64,000 bases of DNA from an uncultured beta proteobacterium. GTDB lineage: Bacteria; Pseudomonadota; Gammaproteobacteria; Burkholderiales; Burkholderiaceae_C. Numbering within the stretch: position 1 is the first letter of the stretch; every line of letters begins with the position of its first letter. Location of the stretch: contig CAIPGC010000103.1 in the NCBI GenBank assembly GCA_903864505.1, positions 97 through 64,096 on the forward strand. Direction: 5' to 3'. Both the position numbers and the translations under genes were made by a program. The notes beneath the pieces were generated by a model. That model made no database searches and was not told where the DNA came from. It saw only the letters and a program-made list of their open reading frames with translations. Positions 17,501 to 24,132 of the stretch are shown here, piece after piece.

Positions 17501-18522
17501 CTGACGCCGGGTTCGATCGGAACGTGAAGATCAGAACCAAGTGGCTGTTTGGTGCACAAGGCAGGGGAATGACAATCGAGCAGGCGACCGAGCGCCTGAA
17601 GGAAGCTGGCTATCTGAAGCAAGGCGATGGCCAGAAAGAAGCGCTGGACCTGATTCGCAAGAGTGTCACCAACCCGCAGTACACGCCGGAAGGTTGGGAG
17701 AGGCTTGCAGAAGCCGAGCAGCAGACCCAATATGCGGATCACCTTGCGGCGCAGCAAGAGGCTGCACAAGACGACGATTACGATCCATTTGTGTCCGATG
17801 GCGCGACAAGTTTTGAGGCAGACGATCTTGATGTCTCTGGCCATGCGAAAGCAAGCAAAGAGATTCAACTGGAAGTTGCAGCGCTGCATGCACAAATGGA
17901 GTCGCTTGGACTTGACCCGGACGCCGTAAAGTACGACATTGCTACACAGTACCCGAATTACACCGATCAAGAGTTTTATGAGCATGTCAAATCAGAATCA
18001 CAAGCCGCCCTTGAAGCCCATTCCGCTGGACGCCAAGCCGAGCAAGGAGGCGATAGAAATACTGGCAAAGATGTACGCCAACCGAGCGACCCGGGAACGG
18101 GCCAACGAGAAGAAGGCCCAAGCCAAGTAACCAAGACCCCCTCAACCGAGGGGGTTTCTACTTCTGGCCCAGAGATTAATCGAAGTGCGTTTGACCGCGG
18201 CGATGCAGTAGACCGAGCATGGCGCGCATCCATCGGCGACCGGGTTGGGCGCTATGGGGTGGCTGTTGATTCCGATAACGGCCGCGTTGTGCTGGTCAAA
18301 GGCAATTCCACAGTTACCTTCAAGTTCGACAAGAACGATGCGGACGCCAGATCCAAAGCGGTAGCCGACGCCAAGACGTGGGCGCGCGAGAACAAAGAGA
18401 TTCCAGCCGAACAGGCAGCCCATCAGCCAGAGCCCGTTGCTGAAGAAAAACCAACCGCCCTCATTGAACTGCGCAAGCGCGAGAGCGTATTGAAGGCGCT
18501 TCGTAAATGTCTGGAGTCGTGA
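14557..18522 (+). CDS. Large ejection protein with polyvalent-protein InPase (inorganic-pyrophosphatase-like) domain
   Basis: PTQAQKEAGNYK...ISIENPRGSERSG...HYGYVRGTEGNDGDHVDTFIG...FDEHKVLLG at ~16380-16800; central hydrophobic helices. Confidence 0.8.
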   Translation: MAGLADIRVNPVAKAAPAATGVRPIVIPSEIDQYRDPAPADVPQSSLADFLPSFSSSTPEVVTTDVPSGPSLADSIGSAMNGVRDWATGARIDGEAKSGSVLETARPVPVDPLDQTGGAPFNADTVKAVTMQLAGMTPQERLKAGSIPGAYGTLARKVTARIDANAGSPVDRVIGGQSLEERTRFYLNQGAGPETAQNLAAQDIHGGYDARSLDQARPTSGDAQAMADGRAEGLPLQKYGVATRGVIGGVEGLKQGGLGVAAAALRLVGDDKTAEELEKSAFKSKSKTDAMNELTAMRRKAQEAGIVSSGPGIMDATYLEDMATGGVASAAQNIPGMAAGAATAIATKNPMLGGRVAMGLMTTQAFGSSFIDGRQRGYTPGHAASYAGAMAAFEFLGERYGLIPAAMNAFKAKAGQMPLAEIPAFMERFIGKAEEKGLFTKSAGSLIREQLGEQVGEQLTGAGQYLIEGSALGMDKPMSVRDFIGNAVDTSVQTLIATGLLQGGGRAGRAAIDSMKSGTVTKPAKEQATLATSPGLPETKQATTETTTAVPATESPIPATQKTETAPADAAVPAEDVLGSVDPDSPVRQDIEQAAHEAATSPLNDLPEPTQAQKEAGNYKVGRVKLHGLDISIENPRGSERSGTSPDGTEWSNTLAAHYGYVRGTEGNDGDHVDTFIGPNPDSEKVFVVDQVNEDGSFDEHKVLLGADSLQQADDLYHANYHAGWTGRGAITEMPLDQFKQWVKDGPKTEPVGKLPKPQQAPVQSGVSTSDTKQPVAPVQQAQPATKPVAEKPLSIGTTPNSSDPITVKDGVVHIGKYPAQNFETGDDVTVPEGATRAQIKQALKDAGAIGNHQKVFNVDEPQENVNGNQADQTKQAEPQQQEAPAAPVAVHYGRDNVPLSEGGKPFTTRKEAGDARRLQPHMRVVSVKGGHALAEKTAAQLAAEEKAAKRLRNAGASEANAPIPAHAFIADAGGLSKDAMSDAGFDRNVKIRTKWLFGAQGRGMTIEQATERLKEAGYLKQGDGQKEALDLIRKSVTNPQYTPEGWERLAEAEQQTQYADHLAAQQEAAQDDDYDPFVSDGATSFEADDLDVSGHAKASKEIQLEVAALHAQMESLGLDPDAVKYDIATQYPNYTDQEFYEHVKSESQAALEAHSAGRQAEQGGDRNTGKDVRQPSDPGTGQREEGPSQVTKTPSTEGVSTSGPEINRSAFDRGDAVDRAWRASIGDRVGRYGVAVDSDNGRVVLVKGNSTVTFKFDKNDADARSKAVADAKTWARENKEIPAEQAAHQPEPVAEEKPTALIELRKRESVLKALRKCLES

Positions 18523-18887
18523 TGGAAGCAAAGATGCAAGCCTTCGAAGACTTGATGGCAGAGGTAAGCGGAGCGCTGGCCGACATCGTTGTATCTCTTC
18601 AAGAAGGAAAGAGCGGTACCGACGAGATTTGCGCCACTCTGGTGGATCTGGCTCAAGTGATTGGAGCCAAGCCAAAGGATGGATCCATGGAGTCGATCGC
18701 TCAAGCCATCAAAGGCATCCGAATCGATTCACCAGTCACCGTAAACGTGAGCCCGACACCCATCACCGTCACTCCGACCGTTCAGATCCTTGAGCGCTCA
18801 GGTGACTACAAGCTGACCGTGAAGTACGACAACCACGACCGTATTACTGAAGCATTCATTTCACGAGTAACCAAGGAAACCCAATGA
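18522..18887 (+). CDS. Hypothetical protein (module gene 1)
   Basis: TGATG-coupled start; helical N-terminus, PVTVNVSPTPITV linker. Confidence 0.7.
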   Translation: MEAKMQAFEDLMAEVSGALADIVVSLQEGKSGTDEICATLVDLAQVIGAKPKDGSMESIAQAIKGIRIDSPVTVNVSPTPITVTPTVQILERSGDYKLTVKYDNHDRITEAFISRVTKETQ

Positions 18888-19108
18888 CCCAAATCACCCA
18901 AGGCTCACTCACCATGGTGGGCCTCAACACCAACACCCCCCAGGTATTCTGGAACGGCAGAGAAGTGCCCAACATCATCAGCATCCGAGTGGACTGGGAG
19001 CACGACGAAAACCGCGTGAAGATCAAAGTAACCGATATTGACCCCGCCTTGCAAGCAGAAATGCTCATGGGTGGCGTGTCGGTCAAGATGGAGAAACGCC
19101 ATGAGTGA
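18884..19108 (+). CDS. Hypothetical protein (module gene 2)
   Basis: 74 aa; ATGA-coupled. Confidence 0.65.
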   Translation: MTQITQGSLTMVGLNTNTPQVFWNGREVPNIISIRVDWEHDENRVKIKVTDIDPALQAEMLMGGVSVKMEKRHE

Positions 19109-19328
19109 ATTCGTAATGGTCATCCCCCCAAGCTGGACCCGGCTCGACCTTGAGGCCGCGTGCCTAATTCCAGGCGTCAGCATCCCCGCCATTGAAAACT
19201 GGATCGCCTCGCAGTATCTGGAAATCATGGCCACGGAGCTGATGAACGGCGGCGTTCTGCCAGTGGGCAGCATCATCCTTGAAGCGCAAATCTTCAACGG
19301 TGAAATGCTTTTGGTCCGACTGGGGTAA
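19101..19328 (+). CDS. Hypothetical protein (module gene 3)
   Basis: 75 aa starting MSEFVMVIPP; 8-nt overlap with the upstream gene. Confidence 0.6.
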   Translation: MSEFVMVIPPSWTRLDLEAACLIPGVSIPAIENWIASQYLEIMATELMNGGVLPVGSIILEAQIFNGEMLLVRLG

Positions 19329-19331
19329 TCG

Positions 19332-21968
19332 TTGACCACGTACACCGTAACGACCGGCACGGCAGGAGCGCCCACGGCCTATGCCAACCTGGGCATTCGG
19401 GCCACGGCAGATATTTTCAACGTCAACGGTGGATACCTGCGCGTGGACTGCGACTCGCGTTACGGCGTCAATGGTGCAGCTGCTGCGAGCTTTGGCAACA
19501 TCGTTCTGTCTGCTACCTTGGGTGGGACTATCGAATTTAATGCTACAAAAGTTCGCCTGATCCCATTCGCATCTGGCGCGGGCACCGTGCCTGCGGCGGA
19601 CACCGCTATCGGTACAGCAGGCGGCGCATCGGGCAAGCTGATCGGTGTTTACTCTGCCCTCAATGCAGCACCTACAGCAGCTGCAGCGGCCATGCCCGCA
19701 ACAGGCTACATCAAGGTGCGCGAATGGAACAGCACCACCTACGCCACCGCTACCGCGCTCACCGGCATATCAGCCACCACCTCCGCAGTAGACGGCCCTG
19801 GCTGGATCGAATGTGTGGGTGTGGACGCCAGCGGCGCCACCGTCAACCGCCTAAACAACTTCATCGTGCGTGGCGACTGGTACGACTTTCAGGGCGTCAC
19901 CACCACGGGCGCAAACACTGGCACCTACCAAATCCCCACCAACGGCTCGGGCGTCAATTACTTCCCTGGCGTATGGGTAGAGACCGCCGCAAGCTCTGGT
20001 GTGTACGAGTTCTACCCCTGCGCCGGATCGCTCGCGGCGCTGGTCGCCAACGTCGGTGTTGAAGCCACACGCGGTAAATTCTGCTGGATCGCAGCCGCCA
20101 CTGGCCTGCTGCGTTTCGGCAGCGACGGCACCAACGCCACAGGCGGATTCGTACCTGCAGCGGGTTTGAAGATTCGTATCCCCAACATCTTCTTTGTAAC
20201 CTGCGTTGCAGCCGCATCGGTCAACGTCATCCCAAACGCCACCCTCACCACCCGCTACAAATTCACCACGACGGGTGGCGGCGTGATAGATATTGACAAA
20301 TGCTGCTTTAACTGGGGCGCATTGTTCGCACAAGCATTCTCGGTGGCGTTGACCAATACCGCGATCATGTCCAACCTGACCGTGACTGAGTGCGCCCAGC
20401 CAGTTGCCTGGAGTCAGGTGGGTATCGGGCAAGAGGCCGCAGCCACCAACACCGCTTTGGTGCTGGGGCTCTGCTTTGCTGGCGGCACGGTCAGCAACTG
20501 CACTTTTACGCGGGCGGCGCTGGCCACTGCGGTATTCATTGCCACCCTGACAGACGTTACCGGCTTCACCTTCACCAGTTGCCGCATGCACACCATGGCC
20601 GTAAAGGCCAATGTGGGCGCAGGCTCATGGTGGCTCACGCGGTCGGTGAACTGCACCTGGACCAGCAACTACATCACAGGCGCAAAAGCCATGCTGATTG
20701 GTTGCAGCGGCCTGACCTGGACCAACACCCATTACAACGACGTATTGGGTGGAGTCACAGCCACCACGGCAGCTCAGAACAACTCGGTGTGGGAGCTTTC
20801 TGGCGCAGCATCGTCAAACCTCAAATTCGATGGTCTGGACTTCAATGGCATCGTCAACACCGCGCCCTACATATCGCTGTTGAGCATCGGCGTTGCCGGT
20901 TGTTCTGCGATCAAGCTGCGAAACATCGGCACCTACGCCGCACCACTCGCACTCGGCACGGCAACGGTATTCACGGGCGCTGTAATTCTGGGCCTTGCTG
21001 GTGGTGCGTGTTCTGACCTCAAGGTGCAGCGCGTCTACTGTGCCAATACCCGCTTGAACGGAATCTACTTTGGATCTTCCACGGTGCCTGACAACTCATC
21101 GTCCAAGTGGACGTTTGAGAATGTCTTCACAGACTACGCCGACAACGCCGACCTGGGTGTGATCCTGCAAATGAAATACAAGGGTTGTGGAGGCGTGCCT
21201 GCACTGGCTGCGTCTGCCTCGATCTACGGCACCCACTTTATGGACTTCTTCACCAGCACCACGGCTGGGCGGATTGCCATCCTGATGAACGAGTCCAACG
21301 CCAACACTACGGCACAGGTCACGCTCACGGGAGGCGCTGCGTTCACATCAGCAGGTGGGCTGTATATGCCTGTGATTGGGCAGACAGTTACGTTCGAGAC
21401 ACCCGAGTACATCATTGGGCATACCGGGTTCACTAACAGCGCAGCCATCATGGCGGGCGGTACGGCGACCAACTACACCTATGGGTTCCAAATCGACAAG
21501 AACGATGGTGCAGGCTGGAGTACGCTTACCTCTGGCTCGACTGCCACAACACTCGCAACTGCACTCAATGCGCTGACCGGAATCAGTGCAGTCAACGGCT
21601 TCAAGCTGCGTATCAAGATCACCACCGGCACTACCAACGCCACGGCGATCACATCGTTCTACATGCTCACCACCAGCACCACGACGACGCAGGCGTACCA
21701 GTACCCACTGGAGACATACACGGTCACCTTCACCGGGCTGCCAACGGGGAGTGATGTGGTGGTGCTCACCGCAGGCACCTCCACCGTGCTCGACATCAAA
21801 GACGCGCTCGCATCCACCAGCTACGGCTACACGTACTCAGGCGCGCAGACGGTGGACGTGGGCTTCATCAACCCAGGCTACGTGCCTTTTTACATTCGCA
21901 ACCTGTCACTCACCACGGCAGACTCCACCATCCCAGTCAGCCTAACCGTTGACCGCAATTACCAGTAG
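19332..21968 (+). CDS. 878-aa beta-helix-like structural/adhesin protein (module gene 4)
   Basis: T/A/G/N-rich with repeated xTFTxC / xTWTxN rungs typical of parallel beta-helices. Confidence 0.65.
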   Translation: MTTYTVTTGTAGAPTAYANLGIRATADIFNVNGGYLRVDCDSRYGVNGAAAASFGNIVLSATLGGTIEFNATKVRLIPFASGAGTVPAADTAIGTAGGASGKLIGVYSALNAAPTAAAAAMPATGYIKVREWNSTTYATATALTGISATTSAVDGPGWIECVGVDASGATVNRLNNFIVRGDWYDFQGVTTTGANTGTYQIPTNGSGVNYFPGVWVETAASSGVYEFYPCAGSLAALVANVGVEATRGKFCWIAAATGLLRFGSDGTNATGGFVPAAGLKIRIPNIFFVTCVAAASVNVIPNATLTTRYKFTTTGGGVIDIDKCCFNWGALFAQAFSVALTNTAIMSNLTVTECAQPVAWSQVGIGQEAAATNTALVLGLCFAGGTVSNCTFTRAALATAVFIATLTDVTGFTFTSCRMHTMAVKANVGAGSWWLTRSVNCTWTSNYITGAKAMLIGCSGLTWTNTHYNDVLGGVTATTAAQNNSVWELSGAASSNLKFDGLDFNGIVNTAPYISLLSIGVAGCSAIKLRNIGTYAAPLALGTATVFTGAVILGLAGGACSDLKVQRVYCANTRLNGIYFGSSTVPDNSSSKWTFENVFTDYADNADLGVILQMKYKGCGGVPALAASASIYGTHFMDFFTSTTAGRIAILMNESNANTTAQVTLTGGAAFTSAGGLYMPVIGQTVTFETPEYIIGHTGFTNSAAIMAGGTATNYTYGFQIDKNDGAGWSTLTSGSTATTLATALNALTGISAVNGFKLRIKITTGTTNATAITSFYMLTTSTTTTQAYQYPLETYTVTFTGLPTGSDVVVLTAGTSTVLDIKDALASTSYGYTYSGAQTVDVGFINPGYVPFYIRNLSLTTADSTIPVSLTVDRNYQ

Positions 21969-21979
21969 GACTAACCACC

Positions 21980-23368
21980 ATGGCAAAAATCACCAGCAAA
22001 GCAGGTCTTGTAGTCGGCACCAACCTCACCATTGACGAGCCAGGCCGCATCATCACATTGAATGTCGGCGGGTCGCTTATCGCCAAAGACGGCGTAACCC
22101 TCCAGGCGCTCTACTCCAAGCTAGTCGATTTGTGGGCCACCAGCACCTACCAAGACAGCCCATTCCCCATGTACGCAATCGATGCATTGTCTGGCCAGTT
22201 CCAGATCGGCACCGATGGCAGCACCTACAGCGGCTGGAAGTTCAGCGATGTGGACAGCGATGCTACCCGCAACATGCTGCGTGACGGCGGCTGGTCCGAG
22301 TGGTCCAGCGCGGGCGTCAAACTGCAAGAATACGCAGGCTTCATCGGTCTGGGCTCCATCACCCCAGCCACCACCGTGCAGCCCTACTACCACCTGGGCG
22401 CAACCGACGCGCCTATCAACTTCCCCTTCACTGACCAGTTCAACGTAGGCGTGCGCGTCTATGGCGATGCCAGCCACGGCAGTCTCGACAAACGCACCTA
22501 CGCCAAAGCCTTTGTGCGCGAGTATGGCAAGAAGTTCAAATCCTCCATCCTGGCAGACACAGGCGCCACCGCCACGGGCGCCAACAAAGTCAACTTCCTT
22601 GTCTCCAATGAAGACGACCTCAAAATCACCACCCTGCTGGGCTCTGTTGCAGCCACGGGCGACTCTGCCATGGCAGGCGCACCCTACAGCGGCATCACAG
22701 TGGCGTACTACACCGCCAACCAAAGCCGCACCATCAACAGCGTAGCGTGCAACTTCAAAACCATCATCGCTGGCAACGGCGCTACCCTTGAGCAAATCTA
22801 CGCCAAGATTCAATACCTGCTGCGCCAGGGAACCGACATCAACACCGGCGGTACCGCAGGCAGCAAGATCGGCAAGATTCAGTCCGACTTGCTCACCTTT
22901 GTTGGCGACACCCTGGTCACCAGCCAAAGCGTGTTTATCGACAACATCCTGGGCACCGACTCCAATCGCATCGAGTTTTACGACGACTCCAACACCAAGC
23001 GCACCAACCCCTACACCGCAGCGGGCACCATGTCATTCAACTCGGTGCTGGTGGGCGCAGGCTCCAGCTACCGTCTCATGTACTCCGCCCCTGCAGGCGC
23101 AGGCAACGACTATGGCGAGGCCGGTGCCATCACCGTCAAAGACTCCACCAACGCAGACATCACCGGCACCATCAGCGCAGCCAGCATCGGGTTTGACTTT
23201 GATTACGACAACAGCACCGCTGGTGGCACCGCGGGCACAGACAAGGCGGTAACCCTCATTGGCATTCGCCCCGGCTCTGGCAAGTTCGCCATGGCCACCG
23301 GCACCTTATCGCGCTCCAAGGGCATCAGCTTGTCGCTAGTCGCTGAGCAGGACCGCGTTTACGCATAA
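21980..23368 (+). CDS. 462-aa putative virion structural protein (module gene 5)
   Basis: DGVTLQALYSKL...FPM..I...QF...GW motif, recalled from phage structural proteins but not searched; RBS AGGA. Confidence 0.65.
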   Translation: MAKITSKAGLVVGTNLTIDEPGRIITLNVGGSLIAKDGVTLQALYSKLVDLWATSTYQDSPFPMYAIDALSGQFQIGTDGSTYSGWKFSDVDSDATRNMLRDGGWSEWSSAGVKLQEYAGFIGLGSITPATTVQPYYHLGATDAPINFPFTDQFNVGVRVYGDASHGSLDKRTYAKAFVREYGKKFKSSILADTGATATGANKVNFLVSNEDDLKITTLLGSVAATGDSAMAGAPYSGITVAYYTANQSRTINSVACNFKTIIAGNGATLEQIYAKIQYLLRQGTDINTGGTAGSKIGKIQSDLLTFVGDTLVTSQSVFIDNILGTDSNRIEFYDDSNTKRTNPYTAAGTMSFNSVLVGAGSSYRLMYSAPAGAGNDYGEAGAITVKDSTNADITGTISAASIGFDFDYDNSTAGGTAGTDKAVTLIGIRPGSGKFAMATGTLSRSKGISLSLVAEQDRVYA

Positions 23369-23371
23369 GGC

Positions 23372-23935
23372 TTGCCCGTGCCCATCACCTTCGATGCCGC
23401 TGCCAAGCGCATCATTCTCGACTCCGCCAGCGTCACCGCCACCGAGCTATACAGCCGCTCGGCAGACTGGCTCGCCACGTCAGACAACGCAAAGTATGGC
23501 GCCGTCTTTCGCCAGGTGGGCGGCGACGACCTGGGCGGCGGCCTATCCATCCCGCCTTACTTTTTCTTGCAAGGCGCATGGCGCGTGCGCCCCATGGAGT
23601 CTGCGCACAACCTCACCATCACCGGCAATTTATTCGTTGAGGGCGGCGGCGTGCCCGTGGTGTCCACGGTTGGCACCTACCAGGTCAACGTCAACTACAC
23701 CGTGCCCGTGCAGGCGCAAGGCATCAGCACATCGGGCAGCACAGGGCCGACGGCGGCGGATATTGCGGCAGCCGTGCGCGCCAGCATTGCCACGGAACTT
23801 GCCCAGATCACCAAGGTTTCCAAGATCCACGGCGTTGGTGTCGACCTGGTTGTCACGCCAACCAGTAGAACGGCCGGCGACTTGCTGCAAACCATCACCA
23901 CGACGAGCAATTCCACGACGGTATCGGCGGCATGA
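23372..23935 (+). CDS. 187-aa putative virion protein (module gene 6)
   Basis: ITFD....RIIL...ELYS..DW...VGGDDLGGG..IP.YFFL...WRVRP motif. Confidence 0.65.
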   Translation: MPVPITFDAAAKRIILDSASVTATELYSRSADWLATSDNAKYGAVFRQVGGDDLGGGLSIPPYFFLQGAWRVRPMESAHNLTITGNLFVEGGGVPVVSTVGTYQVNVNYTVPVQAQGISTSGSTGPTAADIAAAVRASIATELAQITKVSKIHGVGVDLVVTPTSRTAGDLLQTITTTSNSTTVSAA

Positions 23936-24132
23936 ACCCGCTTGTGCTTGCAGTCCAAGGCCTAGACTTTGGATTCGCGGCCATTGCCGTACTCGGTTTC
24001 ATTGCCTACGTCGCACAAAACACCGATCTGAACGGACCGGACGACGAAGAGCCCGACCGAATCCAAACACAAAACAACGCATTGCTGCAGATCATTGCAG
24101 CATTCGTAGCATCAGGAGCACTCGATGGGTAG
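23932..24132 (+). CDS. 66-aa hypothetical protein (module gene 7)
   Basis: ATGA-coupled; overlaps the start of the giant ORF. Confidence 0.6.
   Translation: MNPLVLAVQGLDFGFAAIAVLGFIAYVAQNTDLNGPDDEEPDRIQTQNNALLQIIAAFVASGALDG

Follow-up and report, generated by a model that had tools for sequence, protein, structure and literature searches.

What does a run of seven tightly packed genes encode when the standard profile libraries recognise none of its products? The question is raised by a 64,000-nucleotide stretch of DNA (hereafter the window, C103:97-64096) from a phage contig that was binned in a metagenome-assembled genome (MAG) of 4.04 Mb and 332 contigs. In this stretch seven open reading frames (ORFs), encoding proteins of 121, 74, 75, 878, 462, 187 and 66 aa in that order, follow one another almost without a gap, and an initial annotation, made from the sequence alone, had put them forward as a candidate undescribed virion appendage or secondary adhesion system. 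Sequence comparison leads us to the firm view that the 878-, 462- and 187-aa proteins (the trio), the core of the region at 19332-23935, are homologous to the horn gene set of Synechococcus phage Syn5, i.e. to gp54 (C-terminal domain only), gp53 and gp55 respectively, and the proposed appendage can no longer be called undescribed. We consider it probable, though well short of certain, that the window phage makes a horn-like appendage mounted on the phage head and tipped with an exchangeable glycan-binding head. The finding is more ordinary in kind than the initial annotation proposed, as a characterised relative exists, and more interesting in its breadth.

Homology of the trio to the Syn5 horn genes

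Scans with the Pfam, PHROGs and NCBIfam models gave no match for any of the seven proteins, in agreement with the earlier statement that none matches a standard podovirus function. The blank scans are accounted for by the fact that Syn5 gp52 to gp58 themselves have no PHROG. Sequence and profile searches of the PDB with the 462- and 878-aa proteins returned chance matches only, and a DNA search of 50,697 phage records gave a single weak match, to a circular uncultured phage of 39.6 kb (MW202577.1) that has a run of 854/467/152/66-aa genes in the same order as in the window.

A tblastn search of cultured phages with the 462-aa protein identified Syn5 gene 53, together with matches in S-TIP28, a relative of Syn5, and in Maribacter phage Panino and Virus Rctr197k. 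By blastp the 462-aa protein is 36% identical to Syn5 gp53 over residues 1-462 (E 7e-72), and hidden Markov models (HMMs) of the N- and C-domains of this family match gp53 with E-values of 4e-18 and 2.5e-27. The 187-aa protein is 41% identical to Syn5 gp55 over 109 aa (blastp E 1e-14, also matched by tblastn; HMM E 7e-27), and the gp55-like N-domain was confirmed by HMM in all three phages, i.e. Syn5, Rctr197k and Panino. The match of the 878-aa protein to gp54 is confined to the C-terminal domain, which we call the dock: residues 795-877 align with gp54 residues 539-618 (blastp E 2e-4), the dock HMM matches the C-terminus of Syn5 gp54 (E 2e-10) and that of Rctr197k_179 (E 3e-17), and in a comparison of the 878-aa family profile with gp54 only the last 85 columns align (hhalign probability 91%), the bodies being unrelated. 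The three genes are neighbours within the late operon, as they are in Syn5. A single module may also bear two different heads: in Panino (L092, 8354-11772) two consecutive large proteins of 414 and 724 aa, each with a terminal gp54-type dock (HMM E 3e-10 and 2e-8), are encoded between the gp53-like gene and the gp55-like one.

Syn5 is a lytic marine T7-like cyanobacterial phage, whereas the window phage has 64 kb of DNA with an integrase gene. The two horn proteins of Syn5 are reportedly gp53 and gp54, placed by immunogold electron microscopy in work by Raytcheva et al.; we know of no function for the horn. In the NC_009531 annotation gp53, gp54 and gp58 are structural proteins. The horn occupies the vertex that faces away from the tail, and in assembly the tail is attached before it (PMC4238041). 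We found no report of relatives of the horn genes outside Syn5 in the searchable literature, where the horn is described for Syn5 only.

Genes that travel together

An IMG/VR scan with the 462-aa protein gave 132 relatives, 80 of which were kept; these are 59 to 90% identical to it over the full length. All local window proteins were then compared by tblastn with the IMG/VR loci (n=81). The 878-, 462- and 187-aa genes are mutually adjacent in 78 of the 81 loci, and each is found in 78 to 81 of them. They are also adjacent in 9/9 loci from GTDB species genomes, all of them MAGs, and in five GenBank phage records (MW202577, Syn5, S-TIP28, Panino and Rctr197k). The MAGs were binned to Betaproteobacteria, Dechloromonas, Cellvibrio, Hyphomicrobiales, Casimicrobium, Planctomycetota, Cytophagales and Terricaulis, and the module is 49 to 57% identical in those binned to Planctomycetota and Cytophagales.

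The rest of the genome does not follow. The 1321- and 3391-aa proteins that flank the seven-gene run have relatives in one and two IMG/VR loci respectively, 75 of 90 loci have no further gene within 10 kb related to any gene of the window phage, and head genes, where common to both, are only 22 to 51% identical. We regard it as firmly established that the trio is a mobile cassette moving between unrelated phages. The earlier suggestion of acquisition as a unit therefore survives for these three genes, which travel without other genes of the window phage, and not for all seven.

The 74- and 75-aa proteins have a homologous pair in nine loci (jackhmmer), always directly 5' of the large gene and with the 74-aa member first; the 75-aa family has a conserved N-terminal motif, MSEFLLIVPxGW, and its alignment was too variable for a pattern scan. 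Homologues of the 121-aa protein were found by jackhmmer in 0/81 IMG/VR loci, and its one distant relative (29% identity) lies directly upstream of an 878-like gene in a single MAG locus of the nine (L086). The 66-aa protein has no homologue in any IMG/VR or MAG locus, and in other loci its position is often filled by an unrelated small ORF. The co-inherited unit is thus three genes plus an optional two-gene prefix rather than seven genes, and the 121- and 66-aa genes are lineage-specific neighbours. Of the cassette originally drawn around the 462-, 187- and 66-aa proteins, the link between the first two is upheld by the adjacency counts and the third member drops out.

The small ORFs that occupy the place of the 66-aa gene have features of their own. 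Directly 3' of the gp55-like gene in L020, L041/L042, L043, L044, L048, L050, L054, L067 and L072, several proteins of 57 to 97 aa that look unrelated have in common a C-terminal basic-acidic-LLLL motif and repeats rich in Trp (AWGxSWG, SWKxxWK). The 66-aa protein of the window ends in NNALLQIIAA, which is loosely like this LLLL-type motif. The small ORF after the gp55-like gene may be a fast-evolving fourth member of the module.

The families themselves are large. In a protein collection clustered at 90% identity the 462-aa (gp53-like) family has at least 2749 clusters (868 at 50% identity, 684 of these at E <= 1e-10), the 187-aa family 2165 and the 878-aa family at least 768, and on the strength of these many homologues the three ORFs are real genes. 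Pattern scans of IMG/VR found no close relatives of the 878-, 74- and 121-aa proteins, and a gp53-like gene was present in 0/60 relatives of the host genome.

Conserved core and exchangeable parts

About 40 of the large proteins encoded upstream are related to the 878-aa protein along their whole length (30 to 52% identity). The remaining large proteins, of ~470 to 1340 aa, have only the last ~80 to 95 residues in common with it (29 to 70% identity, mostly 45 to 70%), and their bodies are unrelated to the 878-aa body. In the 187-aa family most of residues 1-130 have an identity of 0.8 to 0.97, beyond which it declines to 0.1 to 0.4. This pattern of conservation across the three families defines an invariant core, made up of the last ~85 aa of the large protein, the 462-aa protein in its entirety and the first ~125 aa of the 187-aa protein, and leaves the large body and the short C-terminal tail of the 187-aa protein as the variable ends of the module.

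Several details of individual loci bear on these parts. The variable tails of the gp55-like proteins (L025, L042, L052, L060, L056, L068, L029, L064 and others) fall into discrete classes, one with 35 members; most start with an A-x-(I/V)-A-x-A-(V/I)-(W/L) motif, and they look like interchangeable short modules. At L065 (7677-9988) and L070 (7425-9988) a 131-aa ORF of its own encodes the dock domain and abuts a 640- or 724-aa ORF, the result either of a split gene or of a frameshift, programmed or introduced in sequencing. The gp53-like protein of Virus Rctr197k (L093, 6707-9124) has 805 aa, its N-domain being matched twice by the HMM (residues 113-218 and 318-385), and many gp53-like proteins of 500 to 870 aa are present in the representative library, insertions and duplications being common in the family. 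Pfam scans of the alternative large-protein bodies gave one Laminin_G_3 match, at L062 (7164-9989), where the body is of the Laminin_G_3/ConA-like lectin type, and one likely mis-called ORF; an endosialidase beta-barrel (PF12195) was seen in protein P0212, and both this domain and the lectin type are recognisably linked to glycans.

Homology between the C-domains of the 878- and 462-aa proteins was considered and is unsupported (hhalign probability 2.5%). For the N-domains of the 462- and 187-aa proteins the comparison gave a probability of 20% with E 1e-3, and a common N-domain is only suggested by these sequences. In the window the two N-termini (21980-22100 and 23372-23480) share a short motif (I-T-x-D ... 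V-T ... L-Y-S-+ ... D-W).

Predicted structures

The AlphaFold2 model of the 878-aa protein, built from a 56-sequence alignment, is all-beta, with a mean predicted local distance difference test (pLDDT) score of 88.8 and a predicted template modelling (pTM) score of 0.83. When it was compared with the PDB by Foldseek, the top six and most of the top 40 matches were phage tailspikes or depolymerases, the best being Klebsiella phage K64-1 S2-4 (9k4a), a K1 capsule lyase, Acinetobacter phage AP22 gp54 (4y9v), the P560 depolymerase, the HK620 tailspike (4xlh) and CBA120 TSP2 (5w6p). The top matches have probabilities of 0.95 to 1.0 and E-values of 2e-6 to 1e-3 with template modelling (TM) scores of only 0.16 to 0.24; the match is therefore to a fold class and not to one enzyme. 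On the model we are confident in predicting that the body is a tailspike-like right-handed parallel beta-helix; a beta-helix had been guessed in the initial annotation. In the family alignment E353 and E654 are invariant, and several Asp/Glu positions are nearly so.

The 878-aa protein resembles tailspike depolymerases in that its body is swapped between related phages, as it is with tailspikes. It differs from them in other respects: it has no sequence similarity to them, the conserved domain that joins it to the module is C-terminal, and it is always accompanied by gp53-like and gp55-like partners. Pfam, PHROGs and PDB sequence searches found in it no N-terminal particle-binding or adaptor domain akin to those of known tailspikes, and we found no N-terminal region common to the differing body types of the large proteins.

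The 462-aa protein is modelled less well (pLDDT 72), with residues 168-225 unstructured. Its model had no whole-protein match in the PDB or BFVD; only sub-domains, beta-sandwiches of the CBM20/PEGA-like type, were matched (E ~1e-3).

Genomic context and the proposed appendage

PHROGs scans of the non-redundant neighbours of the module covered 50 upstream and 69 downstream proteins. Upstream there were at least seven large terminases, about seven portal proteins, one head-tail adaptor and a few fibre-like proteins; downstream were mostly head maturation proteases, capsid-protease fusions, major head proteins and minor head or head-morphogenesis proteins, with some endolysins and fibre-like proteins. 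At six loci (L043, L051, L061, L065, L070 and L072) the trio is flanked by the portal gene on one side and the protease gene on the other. Since phage genes usually cluster by function, this neighbourhood fits a head-associated structure. In other phages the cassette thus sits mostly among head-morphogenesis genes, and it does not belong to an ejection-protein operon as such, contrary to the initial annotation.

A virion appendage is, we infer, the best reading of the trio. By analogy with Syn5, the three proteins would assemble into one appendage on the virion surface, most likely on the capsid. The dock domain, the gp53-like protein and the gp55-like N-domain would form its stalk or junction, and the swappable body would be its working end, binding or cutting polysaccharide of the cell surface or matrix. 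Through a body that contacts polysaccharide the particle would gain a further point of attachment in addition to its tail fibres. The pair of 74- and 75-aa proteins is an optional accessory of the module, possibly for assembly. A functional analogy can be drawn with T4 Hoc and the phi29 gp8.5 head fibres, which are head-mounted, non-essential surface proteins with weak or secondary adhesion; these are spread over many capsomers, in contrast to the one horn of Syn5 at a single vertex, and no homology of the module proteins to T4 Hoc or phi29 gp8.5 was detected.

Assigning the gp55-like protein to the horn has a consequence for Syn5 itself. The carriers of the conserved gp55-like N-domain (80 to 97% identity) have capsid proteins of unrelated families, including phrog_334, 283, 617, 1005 and 4523. 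Because this domain is conserved across unrelated capsid families, and because its gene is always next to a gp53-like gene, we think it likelier that the gp55-like protein is part of the horn complex than of the capsid lattice.

Several points weigh against a horn-like head appendage in the window phage. (i) The location of the horn is known only for Syn5, where the localised proteins are reportedly gp53 and gp54, and that in the window phage is transferred by analogy. (ii) The gene order is 53-54-55 in Syn5 and 54-53-55 in the window phage, and the gp54 body (~535 aa) is unrelated to the 878-aa body, only the C-terminal domain being common. (iii) In the window phage the genes of the trio stand not among the head genes but at the end of the tail/ejection block and the far end of the late operon. 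(iv) In a 4.7-A map of Syn5, gp55 was given to the hexon knob densities by secondary-structure arguments, the authors being unable to build a model (PMC4102127). (v) The Foldseek TM-scores of the modelled beta-helix are low. (vi) One conserved module would have to dock on capsids of unrelated families, and on one vertex only; the variable tail of the 187-aa protein or the N-terminus of the large protein is a candidate docking element.

Alternative explanations

In one alternative the trio would build an accessory tail fibre or side spike, i.e. the 878-aa beta-helix would be a second tailspike near the tail, the 462- and 187-aa proteins would be its adaptor or distal pieces, and the capsid location in Syn5 would be a lineage-specific relocation. 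The tailspike-like fold agrees with this, as do the position of the window trio after tail-fibre-like and internal-virion genes and the tail-fibre or collagen-like tail genes that adjoin the module in some loci (at L021 a major tail protein lies ~5 kb downstream of it). The architecture of the large protein does not, however, as its conserved part is C-terminal and its body types lack the common N-terminal region by which a tailspike would bind the particle. Moreover, Syn5, the only member with an experimental localisation, reportedly has gp53 and gp54 on the capsid vertex opposite the tail, terminase, portal, protease and capsid genes predominate among the non-redundant neighbours of the module, and the identity retained in the MAGs binned to Planctomycetota and Cytophagales is hard to fit with a docking site on one type of tail. 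We judge this alternative unlikely, at something like one chance among several. The more specific idea of a distal tail fibre for one host receptor was likewise set aside as unlikely on that same cross-phylum identity.

A second alternative takes the depolymerase-like fold of the 878-aa protein at face value and supposes that the module encodes a soluble or loosely bound glycan-degrading complex, released at lysis and e.g. clearing capsule or biofilm matrix. Endolysin genes just downstream of the module in several loci and in Panino would suit such a role, as would the growing plaque halos of Panino (PMC11590407). Against it, the annotation lists Syn5 gp53 and gp54 among the structural proteins of purified particles, the genes lie within a late structural operon without a promoter or terminator of their own, and neither a signal peptide nor an enzyme family was detected among the seven proteins. 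We think this improbable.

That all seven genes make one novel, undescribed appendage or adhesion system specific to the ejection-protein operon is very improbable: the tight packing of the seven and the absence of profile-library matches speak for it, but the co-occurrence search recovered the 74/75-aa pair in only nine loci and did not recover the 121- and 66-aa genes as companions of the trio, a characterised relative of the trio exists in Syn5, and most carriers lack the 1321- and 3391-aa neighbours.

The window phage and its seven-gene run

The contig is 64,274 bp long with a 141-bp terminal overlap, by which it is a complete circular phage genome of ~64.1 kb that was binned in a 4-Mb MAG (58% GC) and not an integrated prophage. 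Its terminase, portal and major capsid genes lie at 52.9 to 58.9 kb and are followed, after the wrap-around, by genes for a diversity-generating retroelement (DGR) reverse transcriptase, an endolysin, a 985-aa internal virion protein and fibre-like proteins; the integrase gene is at 34.3 kb, and RecE/RecT-like genes are also present. Other receptor-binding candidates are a DGR-linked fibre gene, a 1005-aa fibre-like protein and a 146-aa adhesin-like protein, and the trio, which lies downstream of them, is therefore not needed as the primary receptor binder.

The seven ORFs (Table 1) are all present on the + strand and as tightly coupled as first described, with overlaps of 1, 4, 8, 4 and 8 nt or gaps of 3 to 11 nt at the junctions of the run. 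They lie, as also described, between the gene for a 1321-aa protein with an InPase domain (PF18823) and a 3391-aa ORF; both flanking proteins are probably packaged. The idea that the 3391-aa ORF is an N4-type virion RNA polymerase was dropped on its helicase and methylase motifs and the lambda-like layout. No promoter-like sites were seen inside the seven-gene stretch, and terminator-like sites were no commoner there than in shuffled sequence. In public gene calls the 187-aa ORF begins two codons later, at a GTG start at 23378, giving 185 aa. The highest 19-residue Kyte-Doolittle hydropathy average of the 66-aa protein is 1.94. The trio region (20001-24000) has a GC content of 0.58 to 0.60, against ~0.55 to 0.57 in its flanks, and a negative GC skew where the flanks are positive; this shift may reflect Thr/Ala/Gly-rich proteins or a foreign origin.

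Table 1. Genes and domains of the seven-gene run, in window coordinates
Feature	Coordinates	Strand	Description
121-aa ORF	18522..18887	+	Lineage-specific small protein, outside the conserved module
74-aa ORF	18884..19108	+	First of the optional accessory pair before the large module gene
75-aa ORF	19101..19328	+	Second of the optional accessory pair
878-aa ORF, TTG start	19332..21968	+	Large module protein
878-aa protein body, residues 1 to ~794	19332..21713	+	Predicted all-beta, tailspike-like right-handed beta-helix; exchangeable part
878-aa C-terminal ~85-aa beta-sandwich 'dock', residues ~795-878	21714..21968	+	Common to Syn5 gp54
462-aa ORF	21980..23368	+	Full-length Syn5 gp53 homologue; most conserved module component
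187-aa ORF, TTG start	23372..23935	+	N-terminal ~125 aa Syn5 gp55 homologue; C-terminal ~60 aa variable tail
66-aa ORF	23932..24132	+	N-terminal hydrophobic segment; unconserved with the module, positional analogue at most

Significance

Although the horn has been described in one cyanophage only, uncultured phages commonly carry its gene set, which is mobile and modular and which the profile libraries leave unnamed. We put forward, as a tentative generalisation, that the Syn5 horn may be the sole studied case of a widespread, horizontally mobile, head-mounted appendage with a core of gp53-like protein, gp55-like N-domain and gp54 dock and with interchangeable glycan-binding or glycan-cutting heads, which would serve many uncultured phages, from several bacterial phyla, as a second, capsid-borne device for adhesion or enzymatic action. 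It would follow that gp55 is part of the horn rather than a knob on the capsid, which calls the published knob assignment into question. That the cassette can carry a tailspike-like head offers an idea of what the horn may be for, i.e. contact with glycans from the head end of the particle. Cultured systems that carry the module are Syn5 on Synechococcus WH8109 and Panino on Maribacter halichondriae. Three profile models, for the gp53-like protein, the gp55-like N-domain and the gp54 dock, would name thousands of phage genes now listed as "hypothetical".

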